A DNA stretch of 64,000 bases from an uncultured delta proteobacterium (GTDB lineage: Bacteria > Desulfobacterota > Binatia > UBA9968). Of the stretch, positions 5,719-63,676 are shown piece by piece. Below the pieces are notes generated by a model, which did no database searches, was not told where the DNA came from, and was given only the letters and a program-made list of their open reading frames with translations. The DNA is taken from contig CAVUVW010000014.1 of the NCBI GenBank assembly GCA_963745035.1, forward strand, positions 672,001 through 736,000, given 5' to 3'. Within the stretch, counting starts at the first letter, position 1; each line of letters opens with the position of its first letter. A program made the translations under genes and the position numbers.

Positions 5719-7029
5719 CTATCTCCCTTCCGCGGATTGAGTCGCGGCGACTCGCGCGCTGTCGCCGTCCATCTGCTGCAGAATTCTCTGCGCCTGTTCG
5801 GCGAAAAGAATATGAAAGTGGGGATTGGTCACGAGCGCGCGGCTTAAAAATTTTCTTGCCTCGTCGAGCTCGCCCAGGCCGTAATGGATCATGCCGGCGT
5901 GAAAAAACAGCTTCGCATCACGGGTTCCGAGCTTGAGCGCTTTATGGATCGCTTCCCGCGCCGCTTTCAGCTCGCCGTTTTTATACAGGTTCCAGGCCAA
6001 GACATCGTATGCGTAGATATCGCGCCGATAGTCCAGTTCCCGCCGGGCCAGCTCCAGGCTTTCCTTCGGATTCATATCGTGATCGGCGTAAAAATAAGCG
6101 AGCTCGCGGTTGTAGAGCGCCTTATTGAGCGCGTTGAGCCTGCCGACGTATTCGACCAATGCGTATTGCTGGCGGGCCAATTCGGGCTTGCCGACTCTCT
6201 CGTAGATCTCGCCTAGCGCTGCGGCGTATTCCGGCATCGGCAAGATCGCGAGCGCTTTTCGATAAAGTTCGATGGCTTCGTCGTACCTTTTCTCCGCCGC
6301 GCGTACCTGCGCCAGGCCGGAGAGTCCACGATAGTAATTGGCATGGGTATCGAGGGATTGCCGAAAACAGGTCTCGGCTTTCTCCAAGTCACCGGCGACG
6401 AAGTGCTCCATACCGAGCTGCCACTCCGCCCACGCGACGCTTTCCGCGGGCTGCTTGGCGATTTTACCAGTGCCAACCGCCCGCTCCAGATCGGCGATCG
6501 CCCCCGCGCTATCACCGCGCAAGCTTTTCAGTCCCGCCAGCCGGCTATAGGAATATAAACTTTGATCCAGCTCCATCATGTAAGCGTAAGCCGCTTGCGC
6601 CTCGGCGTATTGGCCCACCTCCAAGAGCGCGTCGCCCAAGACACCGTAGGCATCGGCGTCTTCGCCATCTCTTTCGATCGCTTGGCGCGCGTAGAGCGCG
6701 GCGGGCGCGAACTCGTGGCGCGAGTAATGGACGTAGGCCAGATGGCGCAGCGCGCCGGCGTTGTGCGGCGCGAGCTGCAAAGTTCGTTTGAGCGCCTCTT
6801 CGGCGCGGTTGAAGTAACTTGGCTCGCCGGTCTCGCGGGCCTTGCGAATGAACGCGTCGGCGAGTCCCAAGTAAACGTTGGCGTTGCGCGAATGGCGCCG
6901 GAGCAATTGTTGGTAGTAAGCGATCTGGTTGTCGGTTCTAATCTGCTGCGCCACCGCTAAATGCGGTGTTACACTGAAAACGCCGAGCAGGACTAGCATC
7001 ATGGTGATCGGGCGTTGCTGGAAGTTCAT
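5719..7029 (-). CDS. exported tetratricopeptide repeat protein
   Basis: Signal-like N-terminus from ATG 7029 and multiple TPR-like helical pairs. Confidence 0.85.
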   Translation of the reverse strand: MNFQQRPITMMLVLLGVFSVTPHLAVAQQIRTDNQIAYYQQLLRRHSRNANVYLGLADAFIRKARETGEPSYFNRAEEALKRTLQLAPHNAGALRHLAYVHYSRHEFAPAALYARQAIERDGEDADAYGVLGDALLEVGQYAEAQAAYAYMMELDQSLYSYSRLAGLKSLRGDSAGAIADLERAVGTGKIAKQPAESVAWAEWQLGMEHFVAGDLEKAETCFRQSLDTHANYYRGLSGLAQVRAAEKRYDEAIELYRKALAILPMPEYAAALGEIYERVGKPELARQQYALVEYVGRLNALNKALYNRELAYFYADHDMNPKESLELARRELDYRRDIYAYDVLAWNLYKNGELKAAREAIHKALKLGTRDAKLFFHAGMIHYGLGELDEARKFLSRALVTNPHFHILFAEQAQRILQQMDGDSARVAATQSAEGR

Positions 7030-12567: not shown

Positions 12568-13080
12568 TCAAAGATCACGAACATGATCAGGCTCTTCGGT
12601 TTTCCGAGCTGTTGACCGTTGCCTGTTGCCTGCCGCCTTCTTCCAAACCATTTTCCGATGGGGAATGCCGGCTTCTAGGAAAACCGGGCCGACGCAGACG
12701 AAACCCAGCTTCTCGTAGAAACCGATGACGGGAATTTGAGCGTGGAGATAAATCTGCCGCGCGCCAAGACGCCGCGCCGCAGCCACCGCTTGTTTGAGCA
12801 GCTTCGCCCCAACGCCCTGATGTCGAAATGATTTCAGCACCGCCATGCGCCCGATCTTCGCGCTGTCACGGCGCAGCACGAGGCGAGCCGTTCCCACCGC
12901 CCGGTTCGAGGCCAATGCGATGAAATGCCGCGCGCGATGATCGTCGTCGTCGAGCTCGATCTCCGGCGGCACGCCCTGCTCGCGCACAAAGACGCGCATG
13001 CGGATGGCGAAAGCCCGCGCCTTTGCCTCCTCCGAAGAAATCTGTTTAACCTGAAGCGTTTTCACAGACTCGCGACTCAA
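12568..13080 (-). CDS. GNAT N-acetyltransferase (ElaA/YjcF-like)
   Basis: 'RMRVFVREQGV', 'KIGRMAV', 'LHAQ..FYEKLGF..EAGIPH'. Confidence 0.9.
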   Translation of the reverse strand: MSRESVKTLQVKQISSEEAKARAFAIRMRVFVREQGVPPEIELDDDDHRARHFIALASNRAVGTARLVLRRDSAKIGRMAVLKSFRHQGVGAKLLKQAVAAARRLGARQIYLHAQIPVIGFYEKLGFVCVGPVFLEAGIPHRKMVWKKAAGNRQRSTARKTEEPDHVRDL

Positions 13081-15078: not shown

Positions 15079-15876
15079 ATGCCATCGATCCGCAAAGCTC
15101 TGACGATCGCCGGATCGGATTCCGGCGCCGGCGCCGGCATTCAGGCCGATCTCAAAACCTTCGCCGCCCTCGGCGTCTACGGCACCTCGGCGATCACCGC
15201 GATCACGGCGCAGAATACTATCGGCGTGAGCCAAGTTTTCGCTCTTAGCCCAAAGCTCGTCGAAAACCAGATTGACGCGATCATGGAAGACATCGGCGCC
15301 CACGCGGTGAAGACCGGCATGCTCGCCAACGCTGCGATTATCCGCATGGTGGCGAGAACCGCGCGCCGGCACCGACTCAAGAACCTTGTCGTCGACCCGG
15401 TAATGGTGGCAACCTCCGGCGATCTTCTGATCGAGAAAAACGCGGTGGCGGCCTTGCGCTCCGAGCTCATTCCTGTGGCGGCGTTGGTTACGCCGAATAT
15501 TCCCGAAGCCGCAGAGCTCACGGGGATGAAGCTTCGTGGCCGCGAGGATATTGAACAGGCCGCGCGGAAAATCGTTGAGATGGGAGCGCCGGCGGTGATT
15601 ATCAAAGGCGGCCACCTGAAAGGCCCGGCAGTGGATCTATTTTTCGACGGAAAAAAGCTCAGCGCGCTGCGCGCGCCGCGGATTCGCACAAAGAATACGC
15701 ACGGCACCGGCTGCACGTTCTCCGCAGCCGTCGCCGCCTACCTGGCGCGCGGCGCGGATCTGGAAGATGCCGTTCGTGCCGCGAAAAAGTACGTTACCGC
15801 GGCGCTCCGCCGCGGTTTCGCGGTCGGCGCCGGGCATGGTCCGGTGCATCACTTCTACCGATTATGGAGAAATTGA
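15079..15876 (+). CDS. thiD: hydroxymethylpyrimidine/phosphomethylpyrimidine kinase
   Basis: 'TIAGSDSGAGAGIQADLKTF', 'NTHGTGCTFSAA'. Confidence 0.95.
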   Translation: MPSIRKALTIAGSDSGAGAGIQADLKTFAALGVYGTSAITAITAQNTIGVSQVFALSPKLVENQIDAIMEDIGAHAVKTGMLANAAIIRMVARTARRHRLKNLVVDPVMVATSGDLLIEKNAVAALRSELIPVAALVTPNIPEAAELTGMKLRGREDIEQAARKIVEMGAPAVIIKGGHLKGPAVDLFFDGKKLSALRAPRIRTKNTHGTGCTFSAAVAAYLARGADLEDAVRAAKKYVTAALRRGFAVGAGHGPVHHFYRLWRN

Positions 15877-15881
15877 CGGTC

Positions 15882-15940
15882 GAGGATTGAGGATCGAGGA
15901 TGGAAGATCGCAATCCTCCATCCTCGATCCTCCGCTCTTT
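15882..15940. repeat. heptamer-periodic inverted repeat between convergent thiD and pyrF
   Basis: GAGGATT GAGGATC GAGGATG GAAGATC gc AATCCTC CATCCTC GATCCTC. Confidence 0.75.
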
Positions 15941-26640: not shown

Positions 26641-26687
26641 AGCGTTCAAACGACTTGAACGCTTGAACTATTGGAACGGCTTGGACG
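26641..26687. repeat. short TTG(G)AAC-type tandem/inverted repeat between gyrB and gyrA
   Basis: GTTCAA followed by TTGAAC, TTGAAC, TTGGAAC and TTGGAC at 8-10 nt spacing. Confidence 0.5.
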
Positions 26688-29162
<2,475 letters not shown>

Positions 29163-31229: not shown

Positions 31230-31245
31230 CCGCCTACAAATTTCA

Positions 31246-31403
31246 CGGCGTTAGGTTCAAAGGGAAGCCGGTGAAAATCCGGCACGGTCCCGCCACTGTG
31301 ATGGCTACGAAAGCCGCAACTAGCCACTGTCCTGAGTTAAAGCTAGGGATGGGAAGGCGCGGCGAGTAGAAAAAAGCCTGAGTCAGGAAACCTGCCTAGC
31401 GCG
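31246..31403 (+). ncRNA. cobalamin riboswitch 1
   Basis: AGGGAA-GCCGGTGAAAATCCGGC-ACGGTCCCGCCACTGT...GCCACTG...GGGAAGGC...AGTCAGGAAACCTGCC (B12 box); closing helix GCGTTAGG/CCTAGCGC. Confidence 0.93.
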
Positions 31404-31474
31404 TTACGACCGGCCTCTCCGGAGAAGAGAGAAAGGTTTCCATATCTTTCCCACTCGGTTGAGGCCAATCGGCG

Positions 31475-32278
31475 ATGATTATGAGATTGGTCTCTTTCTT
31501 TGTTCTCTCTGTAGCTTTACACGCCGCCGCACTGGTTTATCCCGTTTCATTCGGCGGCCGAAGTCAGGTGGAACTGATCGAGGCAACTATTTTGCCAATC
31601 GAGCAAGAATCGATTGGCGAAATAGGCGACGGCGGGAGCGCAAATCCGGCGCTGGCGGCCCGTGCGAAGCCGGCGAAGCGCGCAGCGCGGGCTGCTCGGG
31701 CCAGAGCCCTATTGGAGCCAACCGCGATGGCCCCGGCGCCGACAGCGATCAATCACAGCAGCGACGCAGAGCCGAAGACCTTGCCTGTCGAAACATCAGA
31801 CGGGCCGAGCGACGGCCGCATTGCGTTAGTTTCGGCAATCGCAAATTCCGCCGCGACTCAGAGCGGCGCGCTCTTGGGTTCCCTCGGCAACAGCGTAAAG
31901 GGCAGCGGTACGAGCGGCAATGCAAGCGGTGGCAGCGGCTTGGGATCGTCAGGCACAGCTTCCGGGCAGGGCTCGGCCGAGAACGGCGTCCTCGCCACCC
32001 ATGCGCGCTACCGCGACACGCCGCGGCCGCAGTATCCGGAGAGCGCGCGGCGCGAAGGGCGCGAAGGCCGGGTGCTCCTCCGCGTTTTGATCGACGATCA
32101 AGGGCGAGCCAAAACGGTCGAGATCAACACGAGCTCCGGCAGCCAGGTCTTGGATCGCGCCGCGGCCGAAGCGATCCAACGTTGGCGCTTCCATCCAGCG
32201 CGCTACGGCGACCAGCCGGTCGAAAGCTGGTTGCGCGTCCCGATAGAGTTCCGGCTCGCGGATGTAAAATCGTGGTGA
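31475..32278 (+). CDS. tonB: energy transducer TonB
   Basis: N-terminal TM 'SVALHAA', low-complexity linker, TonB_C 'PQYPESARREGREGRV..SSG..LDRAA..WRFHPA'. Confidence 0.88.
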   Translation: MIMRLVSFFVLSVALHAAALVYPVSFGGRSQVELIEATILPIEQESIGEIGDGGSANPALAARAKPAKRAARAARARALLEPTAMAPAPTAINHSSDAEPKTLPVETSDGPSDGRIALVSAIANSAATQSGALLGSLGNSVKGSGTSGNASGGSGLGSSGTASGQGSAENGVLATHARYRDTPRPQYPESARREGREGRVLLRVLIDDQGRAKTVEINTSSGSQVLDRAAAEAIQRWRFHPARYGDQPVESWLRVPIEFRLADVKSW

Positions 32279-32315
32279 GCATTAAAGGAGGTTCACAAGT
32301 CAGATCTCATTAACC

Positions 32316-32611
32316 GCAAACGGATGCAAGGGAAAGGGGTGACTCCGAAAAGGATAAAGGCAGAAGGCAAAAGGATGAATGAAAGTTTCATCCTTTATCC
32401 CTTATCCTTTTAGCCTTTCAGAGAATTCCCCTGCTGCCCCGCAACTGTAGGAGCTACGAAAGCCGCAAGTAAGCCACTGCTCAACTGATTTGAGTCTAGG
32501 TTTTTGAATTTGGCCGCAATCCAAAATCGAAAATCTAAAATCCAAAATCACGTAGGTGGGAAGGCGCGGTGAGTAGGTTCGAAGCTCGAGCCAGGAGACC
32601 TGTCCGTTTGT
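32316..32611 (+). ncRNA. cobalamin riboswitch 2 with two hairpin insertions
   Basis: AGGGAA-AGGGGTGA[80 nt]AATTCCCC-TGCTGCCCCGCAACTGT...GCCACTG[insert]GGGAAGGC...GAGCCAGGAGACCTGTC; closing helix CAAACGGA/TCCGTTTG. Confidence 0.88.
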
Positions 32612-32648
32612 CCCAACAACTCCCCTTTCGCGGGAAAAGGAGATGGTC

Positions 32649-34605
32649 ATGAAGTTTTTTCTCAGTTTGGTTCCTTGTATTTTGTTTTGGGTGGATGCCG
32701 GCTTTCGCGGCGCAACCGCCGGAAGCAACTCTGCCGCCCGTGTTCGTGACCTCGACACGCACCGAGACTCCGCTCGAGCAGGTCACCACATCGGCGACCG
32801 TCATCACCGCCAAGGATATTGAAGACCAGCAGGCCGAGACGGTGCTTGAAGTCTTGCGCCAGGTCCCCGGCTTTGACGTCGTGCAGACCGGATCCCGGGG
32901 CACCGGCACGTCCGTATTCATTCGTGGCTCGGAGGCCGATCAGGTTTTGGTTCTAATCGACGGCGTGGAAGTTAACAGTACCACTACCGGCGCTTTCAAT
33001 TTTGCCCATCTGACGACGGAAAACATCGAGCGCATCGAAATTATTCGCGGCGCCGGCGGAACCCTTTACGGCTCCCAGGCGATCGGCGGCGTCATCAACA
33101 TCCTTACCAAGAGAGGACGCGGCCCGGCGGAATTCGGCCTGTCCGCCGAAGGCGGCAATGGTTGGACCAACCGCCAAACGCTCAGCCTGAGCGGCGAAGC
33201 TGGGCAAGCTCGGCTACTCGTTCAGCGGCGCGCGCATCGAGACCGACGGTTTCCGACCGTTTCAACGACGATTATCGAAATCTGGCGACATCGGCGCGCT
33301 TGGACTACAAAGTTACCGAAGACGCTGCGCTCAAAGGGATTTTTCGTTTCAACAAGACCGATGTCGGGCTATTCAACAGCAACAACTTCGTGCCCGGCGG
33401 GCGCGATCCCAACTCGCGCGAGGCGGTGACTCAATATCTCGGCAAAGTCGAATGGGAGCAGCGGCATCCTGAAGGAGTGGGACTATCGGATTGCTGGTTC
33501 GATCTTCAAAGAACACATCAAAGATAGCGACGATCCCGACCCACTCGAGGATTGTCAGTTTTTCGGCTTTCCCTGCGACAGCCGGACGCGCAGCCGCTTT
33601 CGGCCGCAAATCAGCAGCGCGGAGTTTCAAACCAACTATCGTTTCGGCGACTGGAGCACGACCACTTTCGGAACGGAATTCAAACGCCGCAAGGCGAGCA
33701 CTTCGAGCAGCTCCGATGGCTTTTCTCTCGGCGAGATCAACAAGGCGATCCGCAACATGGGCTACTATTTGGAGGAGCAAATCAAACTCTTCGGCGACCG
33801 GCTAATCATGATTCCCGGCATTCGTCTAGATGATCACCAGACGTTCGGCTCCGAGTGGAGCCCTTCGTTCTCTTCCTCTTATTTGTTCCGCGAAACCGGC
33901 ACGAGAGTCAAAACCGGCTATGCTGAAGGGTTTAGGGCGCCCACATTAAATGAATTGTTTTTTCCTCCCGGCTTCGGCTGTGCCGCGTTTGGCAATCCCG
34001 ATCTAGGTCCGGAAAAAAGCTGGGAGCTCAACGCCGGCGTGGAACAGACTCTGTTCGGCGACCGAATCACCGTCGGCGCGACTTTTTTTCATCGTGAGGT
34101 GAGCGACTTGATCGGCACCGGACCGACCCCAGATCCGACCGACCCGGCCTTTTGCGTACGCGCGGAAAACCTCGGCAAGGCGCGCTTCGACGGCGTCGAG
34201 TGGACAATGAATATCAAACTGCTCTCGTTCCTAGCGCTCGGCGCCAATTACACGTATCTCGATTGGGACACGGAAGACGGGCGCCTCAACCGCCGTCCAC
34301 ACCATCGCGGCAACGTGAGCTTGAATTATTTTTATGATCGCTTTCGCCTCAACTTCGACGCGCATCTGGTCGGCAAACGCGATGACATCGACTCGGTCAC
34401 GGGCGGGAACATCAAAAAAGGAAGTTACGCCAGATTCGACCTAGCGGGCTCCTATCGATTGCCCGTGAAAATCACTTTGGTGAAGGACGTCAGTCTTTTC
34501 GGCAAGATCGAGAATCTGTTCAACCGGAAGTACGAAGAAGCGGACGGCTTCCGCGCTCGGCCGTTGAACTTCTTGCTCGGCATTCGCGCTGCTTTTGGCA
34601 GCTAG
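32649..34605 (+). CDS. btuB: TonB-dependent cobalamin receptor (about 4 frameshifts near 32690, 33200, 33262, 33465)
   Basis: Plug motifs 'VFVTSTR', 'FIRG', 'VLVLIDG', 'IERIEIIRG..LYGSQAIGGVINI'; barrel 'FRAPTLNEL..GNPDLGPE', 'ENLFNRKY'; directly downstream of a B12 riboswitch. Confidence 0.85.
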
Positions 34606-37416: not shown

Positions 37417-38385
37417 ATGGATTGGCAACTTATTCTAAGCTCCTCGGCGGCGCTCCTGATCGGCGCCTTTGTCTTGGATCTCGCCGTCGGCGATCCGCGC
37501 TGGCTGCCCCATCCAGTCGTTCTGATGGGCAAGGTCATTTCACATGGCGAACGACTGTTGCATTGCGGCCGTTCTCGCAGCGACTTTCTCTCAGGCATCG
37601 CACTGTCACTTTTGCTGATTACGCTCTCCGCTGTAGCTGCATGGACACTCATCGCTCTCTTTCATCGGCTTCCTCTCTGGGTTTCGTTCATCGCCACTGC
37701 GGCTTTGGCTTCCACCACTCTGGCAACCCGCGGCTTGCTCGACGCGGTGAAGCGGATCGAAGCGCCGCTCCGCGCCGGCAATCTCATCGGCGCGCGCGAA
37801 AAACTCGCCCACATCGTCGGGCGAGAAACATCAAAGCTGGACCAGGACAAAGTGTTGCGCGCGAGTCTCGAATCTCTGTCGGAGAGCACCTGCGACGGCA
37901 TCGTCGCGCCGCTCTTCTATCTTTTTCTCGGCGGAGTTCCACTGGCCATGGCCTATAAGGCTGTGAGCACCTTGGATTCCATGATCGGCTACCGAACGGA
38001 AAGATATTTTTATTTCGGCAAGTTCGCCGCACGCCTCGACGACGCGATGAATTTTATCCCCGCGCGGCTGACCGCTTTGTTTATCGTCATCGCGGCCATG
38101 GCGCTGCGATGGAATCCACTTCGCGCGTTGGAGGTTGCATGGCGCGATCATGGCCATCATTTGAGCCCCAATGCGGGCTATCCTGAGGCGGCGCTGGCCG
38201 GTGCCTTTGGCGTCCGTCTCGGCGGTCCCAGCATTTACTTGGGCCAGGAAGTCTATAAACCTTACATCGGGGACGATTTGAAGCCGGTCGAAATCGAGAT
38301 GTTGAAGAAAGGACGTGCCTTATGCCTGGTCACGGCGATGCTCTCGCTTGCGACTTTCGTGCTGCTGTCGATCACCATCGCGTAG
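37417..38385 (+). CDS. cbiB: adenosylcobinamide-phosphate synthase
   Basis: 'GDPRWLPHPV', 'IVGRET', 'DGIVAPLFY', 'TLDSMIGY', 'SPNAGYPEAA'. Confidence 0.95.
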   Translation: MDWQLILSSSAALLIGAFVLDLAVGDPRWLPHPVVLMGKVISHGERLLHCGRSRSDFLSGIALSLLLITLSAVAAWTLIALFHRLPLWVSFIATAALASTTLATRGLLDAVKRIEAPLRAGNLIGAREKLAHIVGRETSKLDQDKVLRASLESLSESTCDGIVAPLFYLFLGGVPLAMAYKAVSTLDSMIGYRTERYFYFGKFAARLDDAMNFIPARLTALFIVIAAMALRWNPLRALEVAWRDHGHHLSPNAGYPEAALAGAFGVRLGGPSIYLGQEVYKPYIGDDLKPVEIEMLKKGRALCLVTAMLSLATFVLLSITIA

Positions 38386-39491
38386 AACCGGACGTCGACC
38401 GAAAGCACGGCGGCGATGTCGACGCGTGGGCGCAAAGCGCCGGCTTCGAAGCCGCGGAGATGATCGACTTCAGCGCCAGCATCAATCCGCTCGGACCGCC
38501 GCCTGCGGCGCGCCGGGCCTTTCTCAAGAGCTACGGCGAGATCTCGCGTTATCCTGATCCTTACGGAGACAAACTCAAAGCGGCTTTGGCTGAGCGGCAC
38601 GGGTTGAGCCCAAGCGAAGTGCTGCTCGGCAACGGCTCGACGCAACTCATCTATCTCTTGTGCGCGGCGCTGCGACCCGCGAAGTGCCTTGATCGTCGGC
38701 CCGGCGTTCGCTGAATACGCGAACGCTCTAACGCTTTGCGGGGCGACGGTTCGCCGATTGTCTCTCTCCTCCGACGACGGCTTTCAGTTCTCGACGCCGC
38801 GGTTTATCGCGGCATGGGACCAAGACTGCGACATCGTCGTTCTGACCACGCCTAACAGCGTTACCGGTCGATTGATCCCGAAAGTGGATTTGGAAAATAT
38901 CGCTCGCATCGCTTCGACGAGAAAATGCTTCCTTGTCGTCGACGAGGCATTCATCGATTTTACCGAGGCCGAATCCGTGAAGCTTCTCGTGCGCCATAAC
39001 GCTTATTTAATCGTGTTGCGGTCGCTGACCAAGTACTATGCTTTGCCGGGACTTCGGCTCGGCTATCTGCTGGCCGAGACTGGCCTTGCGGCTCGCCTTG
39101 CCATCTATCAGGAACCTTGGTCTGTCAACGCCCCAGCCTTGAACGTCGGGTTAGCTTGTCTCAATGACGCGGCCTTTGGAACGAGAACCAACCGCTGGCT
39201 TGGCAGGGAAAGAACGTTCTTGACGCGGAGACTGGCCGCGGTCACAGGCTTTAGTCCATTCCCGTCGGAAGCTAATTTTCTGTTGGTCAAACTCGACCCA
39301 ACCGGCTCCCGACGCATTGCACCTTCGTTCCTTTCTTGGCGAGAAGAAAAATCCTCATCCGCGCGTGCGATTCTTTCGCCGAGCTGGGCGCGCGGTATTT
39401 TCGCGTCGCCGTGAAGCGTCGACGAGATAATTTGCGGTTGCTTGCGGCGCTCGCCGAATGGAGCGCATCGAAAGAACGAATACCGTCGTGA
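38322..39491 (+). CDS. cobD: L-threonine-O-3-phosphate decarboxylase (frameshifts near 38678, 39308, 39350; start uncertain)
   Basis: 'HGGD', 'DFSASINPLGPP', 'GNGSTQLI', 'VDEAFIDF', 'RSLTKYYALPGLRLGY'; third frame gives 'ILIRACDSF..YFRVAV' ending at TGA 39491. Confidence 0.88.
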
Positions 39492-40024: not shown

Positions 40025-41067
40025 ACGAAACCCTCAAACGAATCGTTCCGTTGGATCGAGCAATGGAGCGCACAGCCCAACAGCGGCTGGACTCTCTCAC
40101 CAAACCGCAGGGAAGTCTGGGGAAGCTGGAAGAGTTCGCGCGCCGCATCGCCGTCATTCAGGGAAAAGTGCCGCCGAGACTCGGACGAAAACTGTTGTTC
40201 GTATTCGCCGCTGACCACGGAATCACCGACGAGAGAGTCAGCGCTTACCCGAAAGAGGTAACGGCGCAGATGACTTACAACTTTCTCACCGGCGGCGCGG
40301 CCATTAACGTTCTGGCACGCCACTATGGCATCGACACCGAAGTGATTGATGCCGGCGTCGACTATGACTTTCACGCACCGCGCGGTTTGCGCGAATGCAA
40401 AATCCGCCGCGCTACGGCGAATTTCGCCCGCGGGCCAGCGATGACCCGCGCGGAAGCTTTGCGCTCGGTCGAATTGGGTATTGAGCTCGTCCGCGAAGCC
40501 GCTGGTAATATTTTTCTTCTCGGCGCAGGCGACATGGGCATCGGCAACACCAGCAGCGCCACAGCGACTCTATGCGCGCTAACCGGCCTGCCGCCCGCCG
40601 ACGTCGTCGGACGCGGCACCGGCATCGACGACGCCACTCTCGCAAGAAAAATAGCCGCGATCGAACGAGGTCTCGAGATCAACCGGCCCGACGCCGACGA
40701 TCCGATCGACGTTCTCGCCAAAGTCGGTGGTTTGGAAATCGGCGCCATCGCCGGCGTGATTTTGGGGGCTGCGGAGCTTCGCGTGCCCATGGTGCTGGAC
40801 GGATTCATTTCCGGGGCGGCGGCGCTCCTCGCGCAGAGATTTTCTCCGCACGTGCGGGACATCCTGTTCGCTTCGCACCTCTCCGCGGAAAAGGGGCATC
40901 GCTTGTTGCTCGATGAGCTGAACCTTGCACCGGTGCTGGACTTGCAAATGCGCCTTGGCGAGGGCACCGGCGCCTGCCTGCTCATGGGTTTGATCGAGGC
41001 ATCGGTGAAAATCATGGGCGAGATGGCGACGTTCGAATCCGCCGGTGTAGGAGAGAAGACGCAGTGA
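40015..41067 (+). CDS. cobT: nicotinate-nucleotide--dimethylbenzimidazole phosphoribosyltransferase
   Basis: 'LTKPQGSLGKLE', 'AADHG', 'MGIGNT', 'MRLGEGTGA'. Confidence 0.96.
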   Translation: MSLDETLKRIVPLDRAMERTAQQRLDSLTKPQGSLGKLEEFARRIAVIQGKVPPRLGRKLLFVFAADHGITDERVSAYPKEVTAQMTYNFLTGGAAINVLARHYGIDTEVIDAGVDYDFHAPRGLRECKIRRATANFARGPAMTRAEALRSVELGIELVREAAGNIFLLGAGDMGIGNTSSATATLCALTGLPPADVVGRGTGIDDATLARKIAAIERGLEINRPDADDPIDVLAKVGGLEIGAIAGVILGAAELRVPMVLDGFISGAAALLAQRFSPHVRDILFASHLSAEKGHRLLLDELNLAPVLDLQMRLGEGTGACLLMGLIEASVKIMGEMATFESAGVGEKTQ

Positions 41068-41798
41068 GCTCTTTTCTTGCCGCGCTTCAGTTCTTGACGA
41101 TTTTTCCCTGGCCCAGGACCAGAGACTACTCGGCCGATGAATTGGGAGGCGCCGCAATCTTCTTTCCCGTCATCGGCTTTTTGCTGGGATTGATTTTGGT
41201 ACTGGCGAACGCTTTGTTGGAACCGGTCGCGAGCGCCGGATTGTCGAGCGTGGCGCTCGTCGCACTCTCTGGCGTTTTTGACACGCGGCCTGCACCTCGA
41301 CGGCCTCGGCGACACCTTCGACGGCTTGGGCGCAGGCGGCGACCGAGAACGAATGCTGCGGGTCATGGATGATAGCCACACCGGTGCGTTCGGTTTGATC
41401 GCGATCGTCTTGCTGCTGTTTTTCAAGATTCACGCCATCGAAAGCATCGAGACCGAACGTTGGCGCGCTCTCTTGGCCGCGCCGGTCCTCGGCCGCTGGG
41501 CGATGGTTTTGCTCGGCCATCATTCGCAAGCGGCAAAGCCGGGACTGGGATCGAGCTTAGTTGATCACTTGAAAACTAAACACGTTGTGTCTTCGCCACG
41601 TTCATCACGTTGATTCTTGTCGCCGCAATTCTGCGCGAGGTCGGCGTGGCATTGATGATATGGATCGCGGCATTCAGCCTAGCGAGCAAAGCATTCTTTC
41701 ACCGCCGACTGGGCGGCGTCACCGGCGACACTTTCGGAGCGGTCGGCGAGCTAAGCGAGGCGTCCGTTCTCGTCATTCTCGCTCTGGGGCCGCGATGA
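41064..41798 (+). CDS. cobS: cobalamin synthase (two frameshifts near 41270 and 41590)
   Basis: 'ALQFLT', 'GLHLDGLGDTFDG', 'MDDSHTGAFG', 'GGVTGDTFGA' spread over three frames. Confidence 0.9.
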
Positions 41799-45705: not shown

Positions 45706-45735
45706 CTGTTGCCTATTGCCTGTTGCCTGTTGCCT
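45706..45735. repeat. heptamer tandem repeat (CTGTTGC)x4 overlapping a gene end
   Basis: CTGTTGC CTATTGC CTGTTGC CTGTTGC. Confidence 0.7.
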
Positions 45736-62461: not shown

Positions 62462-62489
62462 TTGACCGCCCAAGTCAAGATGGTACAGT
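62462..62489 (+). promoter_or_regulatory. sigma70/extended -10 promoter, probably leaderless ribB
   Basis: TTGACC-16-TACAGT with TG extension, 8 nt before ATG 62498. Confidence 0.55.
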
Positions 62490-62497
62490 ACAGCCCC

Positions 62498-63676
62498 ATG
62501 CCGCTCGCCACGATTGAAGAAGCGATCGCCGAAATTCGCCGCGGTCGTATGGTCATTTTGATGGATGACAAGGACCGCGAAAATGAAGGCGATCTTTGCA
62601 TGGCCGCCGAAAAGGTCACGCCGGCGACGATCAATTTCATGGCGACCTATGGCCGCGGCTTGATCTGCCTGCCGCTCACCGAAGAGCGGGTGCGCCATCT
62701 CGGGTTGTCGATGATGGTTTCGGAAAACACCTCGCCGTTTGGCACCGCGTTTACGGTATCGGTGGACTCCGCGGCGGGAATCACCACCGGCATCTCCGCC
62801 GCGGACCGCGCCAAGACGATTCTCGATGCCATCGCCGACGACGCCAAGCCGCAGGATCTGGTGATCCCCGGACATATTTTTCCGCTCCGTGCCCGCAACG
62901 GCGGGGTTTTGGTGCGCGCCGGTCAGACCGAGGGTTCCGTCGATCTCGCCCGACTCGCGGGGCTTAAACCGGCGGGCGTGATCTGCGAGATCATGAAGGA
63001 CGACGGCACCATGGCGCGCCAGCCCGATCTCATGCGATTTGCCAAGCGCCACAAGCTCAAGGTCGTAACCACCGCCGATCTCATTCAATACCGGCTCAAC
63101 TACGATTCGCTGGTGTATCGCGCTGCGGCAGCGCCGCTGCCCACCCGGGTAGGCGGCATGTTCGAGGCGATCGTCTACAACACCCACGTCGACCAGAGCG
63201 AGCACCTGGCGCTCGTCAAAGGCAAGATATCGCCCAAAGAAGAGACCTTGGTGCGCGTGCACACCAAATACGTGCCCGGCGATGTTTTCGGTTTCGAGCT
63301 GCTCAACACCAACGCGGTGATTCAACGCTCCATGGAAATCATTGCTCAGGCGGACAAAGGCGTCGTTTTATATCTCCGGCCGGAGCTCAGGGGACTGCGC
63401 CCGGCGATGGTGGCTTATCCCAAGCTGGAAGGAAAACAGCAGCGCGGGCTCAACCGTTCGTTCGTGTATCAAGCCGATTTCAAAGAATACGGCATCGGCG
63501 CACAGATCCTGCGTGATCTCGGCGTCGGCAAGATGCGTCTGCTGACCAACAACAAGAAACATTTGGTCGGCCTACGCGGCTACGGCTTGGAAGTCACCGC
63601 CCTCGAACCGATCCCGCGCGATCATCCGCTGCGCGAAGCCGCCAAGCCAAAAAAGCCCCGCGCGCAGCGCGCCTGA
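62498..63676 (+). CDS. ribB: 3,4-dihydroxy-2-butanone-4-phosphate synthase with degenerate GTP cyclohydrolase II domain (RibBX type)
   Basis: 'DRENEGD', 'TAFTVSV', 'GISAADRA', 'PGHIFPL', 'VICEI'; the C-terminal domain lacks the Zn-binding cysteines. Confidence 0.92.

Follow-up and report, generated by a model that had tools for sequence, protein, structure and literature searches.

The locus studied here raises the question of how a riboswitch can carry a long hairpin in the middle of a loop that makes a conserved tertiary contact. In the window, by which we mean the whole 64-kb stretch of DNA that was analysed, two cobalamin riboswitches belong to one operon, and the second of them, in the leader of a btuB-like gene, has its L4 T-loop split by such a hairpin. 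A sequence-only reading of this DNA had left two answers side by side, namely a new structural variant in which a long helix is extruded from the T-loop while function is kept, or an inactivated switch that is compensated by riboswitch 1. We addressed this question by aligning and folding the riboswitch itself and by comparing it with the btuB leaders of related genomes.

The inserted hairpin and its surroundings

Annotation with Pfam revealed an operon for B12 salvage and uptake with the order riboswitch 1, tonB-like, riboswitch 2, btuB-like, DUF4430, cobQ, cbiZ, cbiB, cobD-type aminotransferase, cobU, cobT, cobS, btuF, btuC and btuD. The features of riboswitch 2 and its immediate neighbourhood, in window positions, are the following.

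31236..31413, plus strand: riboswitch 1 (cobalamin) with a canonical 7-nt L4 loop, 5' of the tonB-like gene (Rfam RF00174, 102.8 bits, full model 1-189)
31475..32278, plus strand: gene for a TonB-like protein between both riboswitches (Pfam TonB_C, E 3.8e-25)
32305..32621, plus strand: aptamer of riboswitch 2 (cobalamin) in the btuB leader (Rfam RF00174, 66.6 bits against a gathering score of 31.5, model 1-189, E 3e-14)
32335..32342, plus strand: P4 5' strand AGGGG (32335-32339) and T-loop nucleotides 1-3 UGA (32340-32342) (Rfam alignment and sequence; P4 forms in the whole-leader fold)
32343..32423, plus strand: 81-nt inserted hairpin with a purine-rich 5' arm of AAAGGNN-like heptamers and a pyrimidine-rich 3' arm (Rfam insert states, fold, inverted repeat, orthologous copies)
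32424..32432, plus strand: T-loop nucleotides 4-5 and two bulged nucleotides AAUU (32424-32427), followed by the P4 3' strand CCCCU (32428-32432) (Rfam alignment and sequence)
32438..32442, plus strand: L5 CCCGC, complementary to the platform loop GCGGG (sequence, kept in all orthologues; a probable kissing-loop role from the family literature)
32482..32554, plus strand: second insert of about 73 nt, a P6 extension that forms an (AATCCAA)n heptamer hairpin (Rfam insert of 73; own hairpin in the fold)
32590..32600, plus strand: B12-box core GCCAGGAGACC (sequence, conserved model positions)
32620..32642, plus strand: hairpin of the expression platform, CUCCCCUUU-CGCGGGA-AAAGGAG, with the loop GCGGG at 32630-32634 and the ribosome-binding site GGAG (32639-32642) in its 3' strand (sequence and fold)
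32649..34605, plus strand: btuB-like gene for a TonB-dependent vitamin B12 receptor, in several frames (Pfam Plug and TonB_dep_Rec_b-barrel; tblastn with the intact 650-aa relative P0001)

At L4, riboswitch 2 reads GGGGTGA-(81 nt)-AATTCCCC, and the wider leader reads ...AGGGAA-AGGGG-UGA-(81 nt)-AAUU-CCCCU-GCUGCCCCGCAACUGU...; taking the 81 nt out leaves GGGGUGAAAUUCCCC. In the alignment to RF00174, every base of 32343-32423 occupies the insert state between model positions 58 and 59 in the P4 loop, with GGUGA on its 5' side and AAUUCC on its 3' side. The insertion site lies between T-loop nucleotides 3 and 4 of L4, where the T-loop is recognised by its sequence signature alone (U-G-A ... A-A-U-U). 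This is exactly the conserved loop into which the sequence-only reading had placed the insert. That reading was also right about its presence and its start; the end had been set one base short (32343..32422, 80 nt), and the true span is 81 nt. On its own, the insert folds into an imperfect hairpin of -25.1 kcal/mol (z = -3.26), a stability reached by 0 of 200 shuffled sequences. It coincides with inverted repeat I6, whose arms of 37 nt each (32343-32379 and 32387-32423) are 70% complementary, and its 5' arm forms a weak array of period 7 with 3.9 copies and 75% matches.

The remainder of the aptamer had been described as intact, and this holds for the core, the B12 box, L5 and the platform. 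All core motifs of RF00174 are found at conserved model positions: GGGAA in J3/4, GCUGCCCCGC in P5/L5, GCCACUG...GGGAAGGC and the B12 box GCCAGGAGACC. The score of 66.6 bits is more than twice the threshold, contrary to the expectation that standard covariance searches might score this riboswitch poorly; RF00174 probably loses few bits at the insert because L4 insertions are frequent in the family. When the whole leader is folded, the hairpins of the insert, the P6 extension and the ribosome-binding site form next to P4 as separate elements. The P6 extension is itself repetitive, with a tandem array at 32518-32549 (period 7, 4.6 copies) found by TRF. The ribosome-binding site GGAG lies seven bases 5' of the ATG at 32649, and its hairpin is predicted from these elements to act as a translational OFF platform, the classical one for this class. 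For the part that the L5-L13 contact plays in such platforms we rely on the passages of PMC6158498 that treat it.

A scan for terminators in the region of riboswitch 2 gave one terminator-like site, on the minus strand and inside riboswitch 1, and a scan with the sigma-70-like consensus found no promoter ahead of riboswitch 2. A conserved CTTGACA box is present 5' of riboswitch 1 only; it goes uncalled by the promoter scan since its spacing falls outside the scan rule. Elsewhere in the window, Rfam reported a match to the Vibrio antisense RNA V_AS9 on the minus strand at 62597-62698 (52.6 bits, threshold 50). It is antisense within ribBA (62462-63676; DHBP synthase and GTP cyclohydrolase II) and probably reflects conserved coding sequence, not an RNA gene.

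L4 states in orthologous btuB leaders

A search of contigs with the receptor yielded 79 loci, none of them from the source genome and the best matching at 80-83% amino-acid identity. Rfam was run on 31 of these loci, and the btuB-proximal riboswitches counted below number 31 (30 loci and the window); L023 is masked with N at L4, and L017, L021, L031, L032 and L036 have no leader. All 31 score at least the Rfam threshold, with values between 36.2 and 95.9 bits. Across the Binatia clade, where 27 loci hold both riboswitches, the order riboswitch 1, tonB, riboswitch 2, btuB is maintained. According to L4, the btuB leaders divide into four states.

State A (6): window, L019, L026, L029, L030, L048; shared GGAT-rich L4 hairpin of 75-81 nt
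State B (3): L008, L011, L022; unrelated hairpins of 42, 51 and 51-52 nt at model position 58/59
State C (10): L001-L006, L009, L016, L027, L033; remodelled P4 with short purine-rich inserts
Canonical (12): L007, L010, L012-L015, L018, L020, L024, L025, L028, L050; usual 7-nt L4 loop

The hairpins of state B fold with -19.5, -20.4 and -33.3 kcal/mol (z of -2.76, -1.26 and -2.22 for L008, L011 and L022, respectively), and L022 reaches 83.4 bits in Rfam despite its L4 insert of 52 nt. In state C, the insert measures 1-8 nt in the four leaders aligned to the Rfam model (L001, L003, L006 and L016). The state C leaders include the closest BtuB relatives of the window and still score 36-79 bits; in L001, GGGAA of J3/4 is apparently replaced by GGUGA. 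Given these ten leaders with remodelled P4 and L4, the constraint on L4 may be relaxed in this lineage. Orthologous btuB leaders with an empty site, proposed earlier as a check on the insert, do exist: 12 of 31 have the canonical 7-nt loop.

The same picture emerged from a pattern search for riboswitch cores in the window and the loci. Out of 95 cores, 75 show the canonical spacing between J3/4 and L5; of the remaining 20, 18 belong to btuB leaders in states A, B and C, one to L018, which is truncated by its contig end, and one to the masked L023. Canonical spacing is found in all 27 copies of riboswitch 1 and in all 36 leaders of more distant btuB genes. In a tree of BtuB proteins, restricted to the 73 of 80 rows that had at least 400 aligned residues, the leaders of states A, B and C are intermingled and the canonical clade stands apart; the label "canonical" in this tree also spans the masked L023 as well as L017, L021 and L036, which have no leader.

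Next to the inserts, the loop itself is retained. In all nine leaders with a long insert, U occupies loop position 1 and A-A follows straight after the insert (pattern U-N-N, insert, A-A-N-U). The expression platform and its complement in L5 are conserved in 31 of 31 leaders. In the canonical clade, the platform is doubly changed with the pairing kept, as CCCUCUC-GCGGGAG-AGAAGGAGG (CCCUCUC...GAGAGAAGGAGG); such compensated changes, CCCUCUC...GAGAG against CCCCUUU...AAAAG, occur in L010, L013-L015, L018, L020, L024 and L025. Compensated changes within one clade support the stem that hides the ribosome-binding site.

The gene behind the window's riboswitch is broken. Single bases are inserted into its btuB at four places, one in the T6 run at 32655-32660 and the others near 33200, 33255 and 33465, and a stop codon lies in frame at 33427-33429. 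In the same operon, the gene for the cobD-type aminotransferase (38322-39414) and cobS (41037-41786) are each split over frames and return to the original frame; the long neighbours, i.e. an 811-aa ORF, cobQ, cbiB and cobT, are intact. The frame breaks in the three genes are either consensus indel errors of the assembly or young pseudogenes. Taken as decay, they would fit a riboswitch 2 that is a relic: the insert would have broken the L4 tertiary contact, btuB would be decaying, and regulation would be left to riboswitch 1, which agrees with the missing promoter ahead of riboswitch 2 insofar as both riboswitches would then depend on the upstream promoter. We regard this explanation as very unlikely. 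The closest protein of the window's receptor, P0001, is an intact receptor of 650 aa, 99% identical over the C-terminal 391 aa (the sources label the receptor's nearest proteins as "vitamin B12 transporter" or "TonB-dependent receptor [Candidatus Binatia bacterium]"). Behind insert-bearing leaders, btuB is one open frame in L019, L008, L011 and L022, and in L026 it is open as far as the contig extends; of these, L019 and L026 carry the same insert as the window. The broken copies of L029, L030 and L048 come from one assembly series in which neighbouring genes are also fragmented. Because of this one series and the intact P0001, the btuB frameshifts are probably consensus errors and not decay. 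Against a relic also stand the intact aptamer and platform of riboswitch 2 and, in the rows of the 2007 AdoCbl alignment considered here, the frequency of insertions at this L4 site in lineages with working riboswitches. Given the frameshifted btuB, the window's own copy of riboswitch 2 may be outside selection.

Altogether, as judged by sequence comparison, the insert is neither an assembly artefact nor a sign of decay, because five independent assemblies of other Binatia genomes carry the same hairpin at the same site and three more carry unrelated hairpins there. Of the two answers mentioned at the outset, an inactivated switch is unlikely. The comparative evidence favours a riboswitch that would have kept its function: six genomes have this insert and three have other hairpins, the flanks are kept, the platform is present in 31 of 31 leaders, and btuB is intact in L019.

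Origin and role of the hairpin

We consider it probable that the insert is a "variable insertion", a self-contained hairpin at a known permissive position of the L4 T-loop, and that riboswitch 2 is a class-I-type cobalamin sensor in the btuB leader. UGA on the 5' side and AAUU on the 3' side would still form a closed T-loop docked on the P6/P7 region; the hairpin would project into the solvent from the apex of the loop, where nucleotide 3 is expected to be unstacked. Binding of B12 would still stabilise the loop-loop contact between L5 and L13, hide the ribosome-binding site and thereby repress translation of btuB. The hairpin most likely derives from the heptamer-repeat hairpins that populate the non-coding DNA of this lineage, and it may persist because it folds on its own and leaves the core undisturbed. 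Two marks of a variable insertion are evident in the insert, namely an own stable stem-loop and the exact position after loop nucleotide 3. A third, a non-conserved sequence, is not: the six copies of state A have a mean column identity of 89% and a mean pairwise identity of 79%, and the latter, which is more than a mere spacer hairpin needs, counts against this reading. So do the lack of significant covariation in the hairpin, the frameshifts in the window's btuB, the possible relaxation of L4 and the shorter length of the published inserts observed here (12-28 nt).

Non-coding tandem heptamers occur in the window at 15866-15940, 12609-12632, 45706-45735 and 26649-26689; they comprise (TCGAGGA)n followed by the inverse (ATCCTCC)n, which together form a hairpin between convergent ORFs, (CTGTTGC)n at two places and an array of (AACGCTTG)n. 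The related loci also hold arrays of period 7, frequently arranged as inverted pairs whose units differ (e.g. L010 1210-1332, L025 1005-1100 and L049 157-231). One possible explanation could be that the insert is a copy of a dispersed mobile repeat of the REP or MITE type, selfish or neutral, which reached a permissive site by chance. In favour of this are the period-7 arrays, common in the non-coding DNA of the Binatia genomes examined and often in inverted pairs, and three hairpin families, of the GGAT, CCCUCUCCCUCAGGGAGAGGG and AATCCAA types, each of which is found at two sites of orthologous leaders. A profile of the six state A copies, searched with nhmmer against 870 kb (the window and 79 loci), matched these copies and one further hairpin (E 1.6e-7) of the GGAT type at 2766-2842 of L016, which lies in the P6 extension (fold z -5.14), with none in L4 of that leader. 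One and the same hairpin of the CCCUCUCCCUCAGGGAGAGGG type (CCCUCUCCCUCAGGGAGAGGGAAGGGUGAGGG) occupies L4 in L022, at 728-778, and the aptamer-platform linker in L006, at 5871-5911. The AATCCAA type forms the P6 extension in the window and in L001 and lies in the 5' P2 region of L002, L003, L006, L009, L016, L027 and L033.

Several results speak against mobility. The word "repeat", used for the insert in the sequence-only reading, is right for its internal heptamer periodicity and wrong if a further copy in the 64-kb window is meant: none is found among the repeat families listed for the window, and a 12-mer from the insert, searched with at most 1 mismatch, has three matches in the window (0.15 expected), all of them within the insert. 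Outside btuB leaders, the three hairpin families are absent from the 870 kb of window and loci, a search space that covers only about 12 kb per genome. At the ends of the insert, the flanks ...GGTGA and AATTCC... hold no direct repeat that would indicate a target-site duplication. Moreover, the six L4 copies are orthologous and occupy the same site in divergent species, i.e. they are not recent. We therefore rate a mobile repeat as unlikely.

The conservation of the insert leads to another explanation. Within the state A leaders, the mean pairwise identity of the insert (79%, range 59-95%) is about that of P1-P3 (80%), below that of the core from P4 to P6 (90%) and far above that of the variable region of P6 (29%). 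This is found in six genomes whose BtuB proteins are only 50-75% identical to the reference P0001. Across the six orthologues, 95.5% of cells at the 34 predicted pairs of the hairpin are paired, compared with 39-70% when the partners are slid. Covariation among the six copies was not significant: 21 of 34 pairs are invariant, one is compensatory, and a score as high as that observed arises in 116 of 500 shuffles. Such a pattern, with pairs that are invariant instead of covarying next to a P6 insert of the same RNA that is far less similar, might be expected if the hairpin were a functional add-on under selection at the sequence level, grafted at a permissive port to bind, say, a protein or another RNA or to time co-transcriptional folding. 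The related hairpin in the P6 extension of L016 would agree with this, as if the module had been kept but moved. However, the hairpin is dispensable, because 3 of 31 leaders have unrelated hairpins, four of the ten remodelled leaders, where this could be seen, have inserts of 1-8 nt, and 12 have none; in addition, the states are interleaved on the BtuB tree. Searched alone in Rfam, the insert belongs to no known RNA family, its best match being a generic microRNA-precursor hairpin with 26.3 bits against a threshold of 60. An upstream ORF in the hairpin was considered and rejected: an apical AUG is present in five of six orthologues, but frames and lengths vary, and L019 has no AUG. On balance, we find a functional add-on rather improbable.

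What remains unusual about the insert is its length, its make-up of heptamer repeats, the conservation of its sequence across species and the fact that the hairpin types recur elsewhere, at other permissive sites. Of these, sequence conservation and reuse are the sole features that an inert spacer does not cover. As a more speculative reading, to which we give little credence, several ports of the btuB leader (the L4 T-loop, the P6 extension, P2 and the linker between aptamer and platform) might dock exchangeable, sequence-conserved hairpin modules with a function of their own, such as lineage-specific recruitment of a protein or the tuning of co-transcriptional folding or RNA decay; the 81-nt hairpin would then be a regulatory add-on and not inert filler.

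If the hairpin is a variable insertion, as we consider probable, the finding as it stands matters little, since it adds a further cobalamin riboswitch to those with a helix at this site, which was catalogued as insertion-tolerant in 2007. It does provide a natural test case, in which leaders that otherwise look fully functional by sequence accommodate an 81-nt helix, or unrelated hairpins of 42-52 nt, between nucleotides 3 and 4 of the T-loop. This bounds the load that a T-loop-mediated tertiary contact can bear and may be of some use for RNA design and annotation pipelines.

Comparison with known repeats and T-loop insertions

Heptamer periodicity in non-coding DNA is known from the STRR sequences of heterocystous cyanobacteria, and palindromic intergenic hairpin repeats are known as REP and MITE elements. 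The Binatia insert differs from both in phylum, base composition and units, and multi-copy dispersal was not detected for it. PMC3184786 yielded nothing on repeats inside riboswitches, and among the papers searched none joined Binatia and riboswitch.

For the loop itself, the structural background comes from the T-loop passages of PMC6158498, in which the L4 T-loop makes an L4-L6 contact "directing global folding" and is called "highly conserved". [quoted passage not shown] Position 3 is likewise termed "flexible", with the consensus YGNRA, in a later screen (bioRxiv 10.1101/2022.12.26.521914).

That this site tolerates inserted helices has been known since Barrick and Breaker 2007 (PMC2258182), who termed such insertions nonconserved. 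In the portion of their AdoCbl alignment considered here (PMC2258182, Stockholm/AdoCbl.stk), a block of 165 columns follows right after GG.UGN and precedes the last four loop nucleotides. Among 166 rows with "GG.UGA", 48 have inserted letters and 118 a gap, and in part 20 of the alignment 8 of 22 rows have inserts of 13-28 nt; other examples measure 12-18 nt. L4 extensions are thus already frequent in these rows, and the suggestion of a new structural variant is not borne out: helices extruded from precisely this position in L4 have been catalogued and are frequent in the family, and the Binatia insert is an unusually long example.

Helices that interrupt a T-loop are also found elsewhere. [quoted passage not shown] The atypical cobalamin riboswitch of Bacillus subtilis (Chan et al. 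2020, PMC7367189) has a 4-nt rearrangement and no inserted helix, unlike riboswitch 2 of Binatia.

The closest known systems are the AdoCbl riboswitches with an insertion in the P4 loop described by Barrick and Breaker 2007, represented in the portion of the alignment considered here by NC_002678.2/6749128-6749334 (Mesorhizobium loti), NC_006526.1/1014953-1015154 (Zymomonas mobilis), NC_003063.1/1153059-1152850 and NC_002516.1/1381500-1381708. These rows have the insertion at the identical site (GG-UGN, insert, 4 nt, P4 3' strand), the inserted bases pair into a hairpin, and the T-loop nucleotides on either side of it are kept. The inserts observed in this portion are 12-28 nt long, a longer one being implied by the width of the 165-column block alone. 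In contrast, the Binatia insert measures 81 nt (75-81 nt in orthologues), is composed of purine and pyrimidine repeats that resemble heptamers, and keeps its sequence across a clade.
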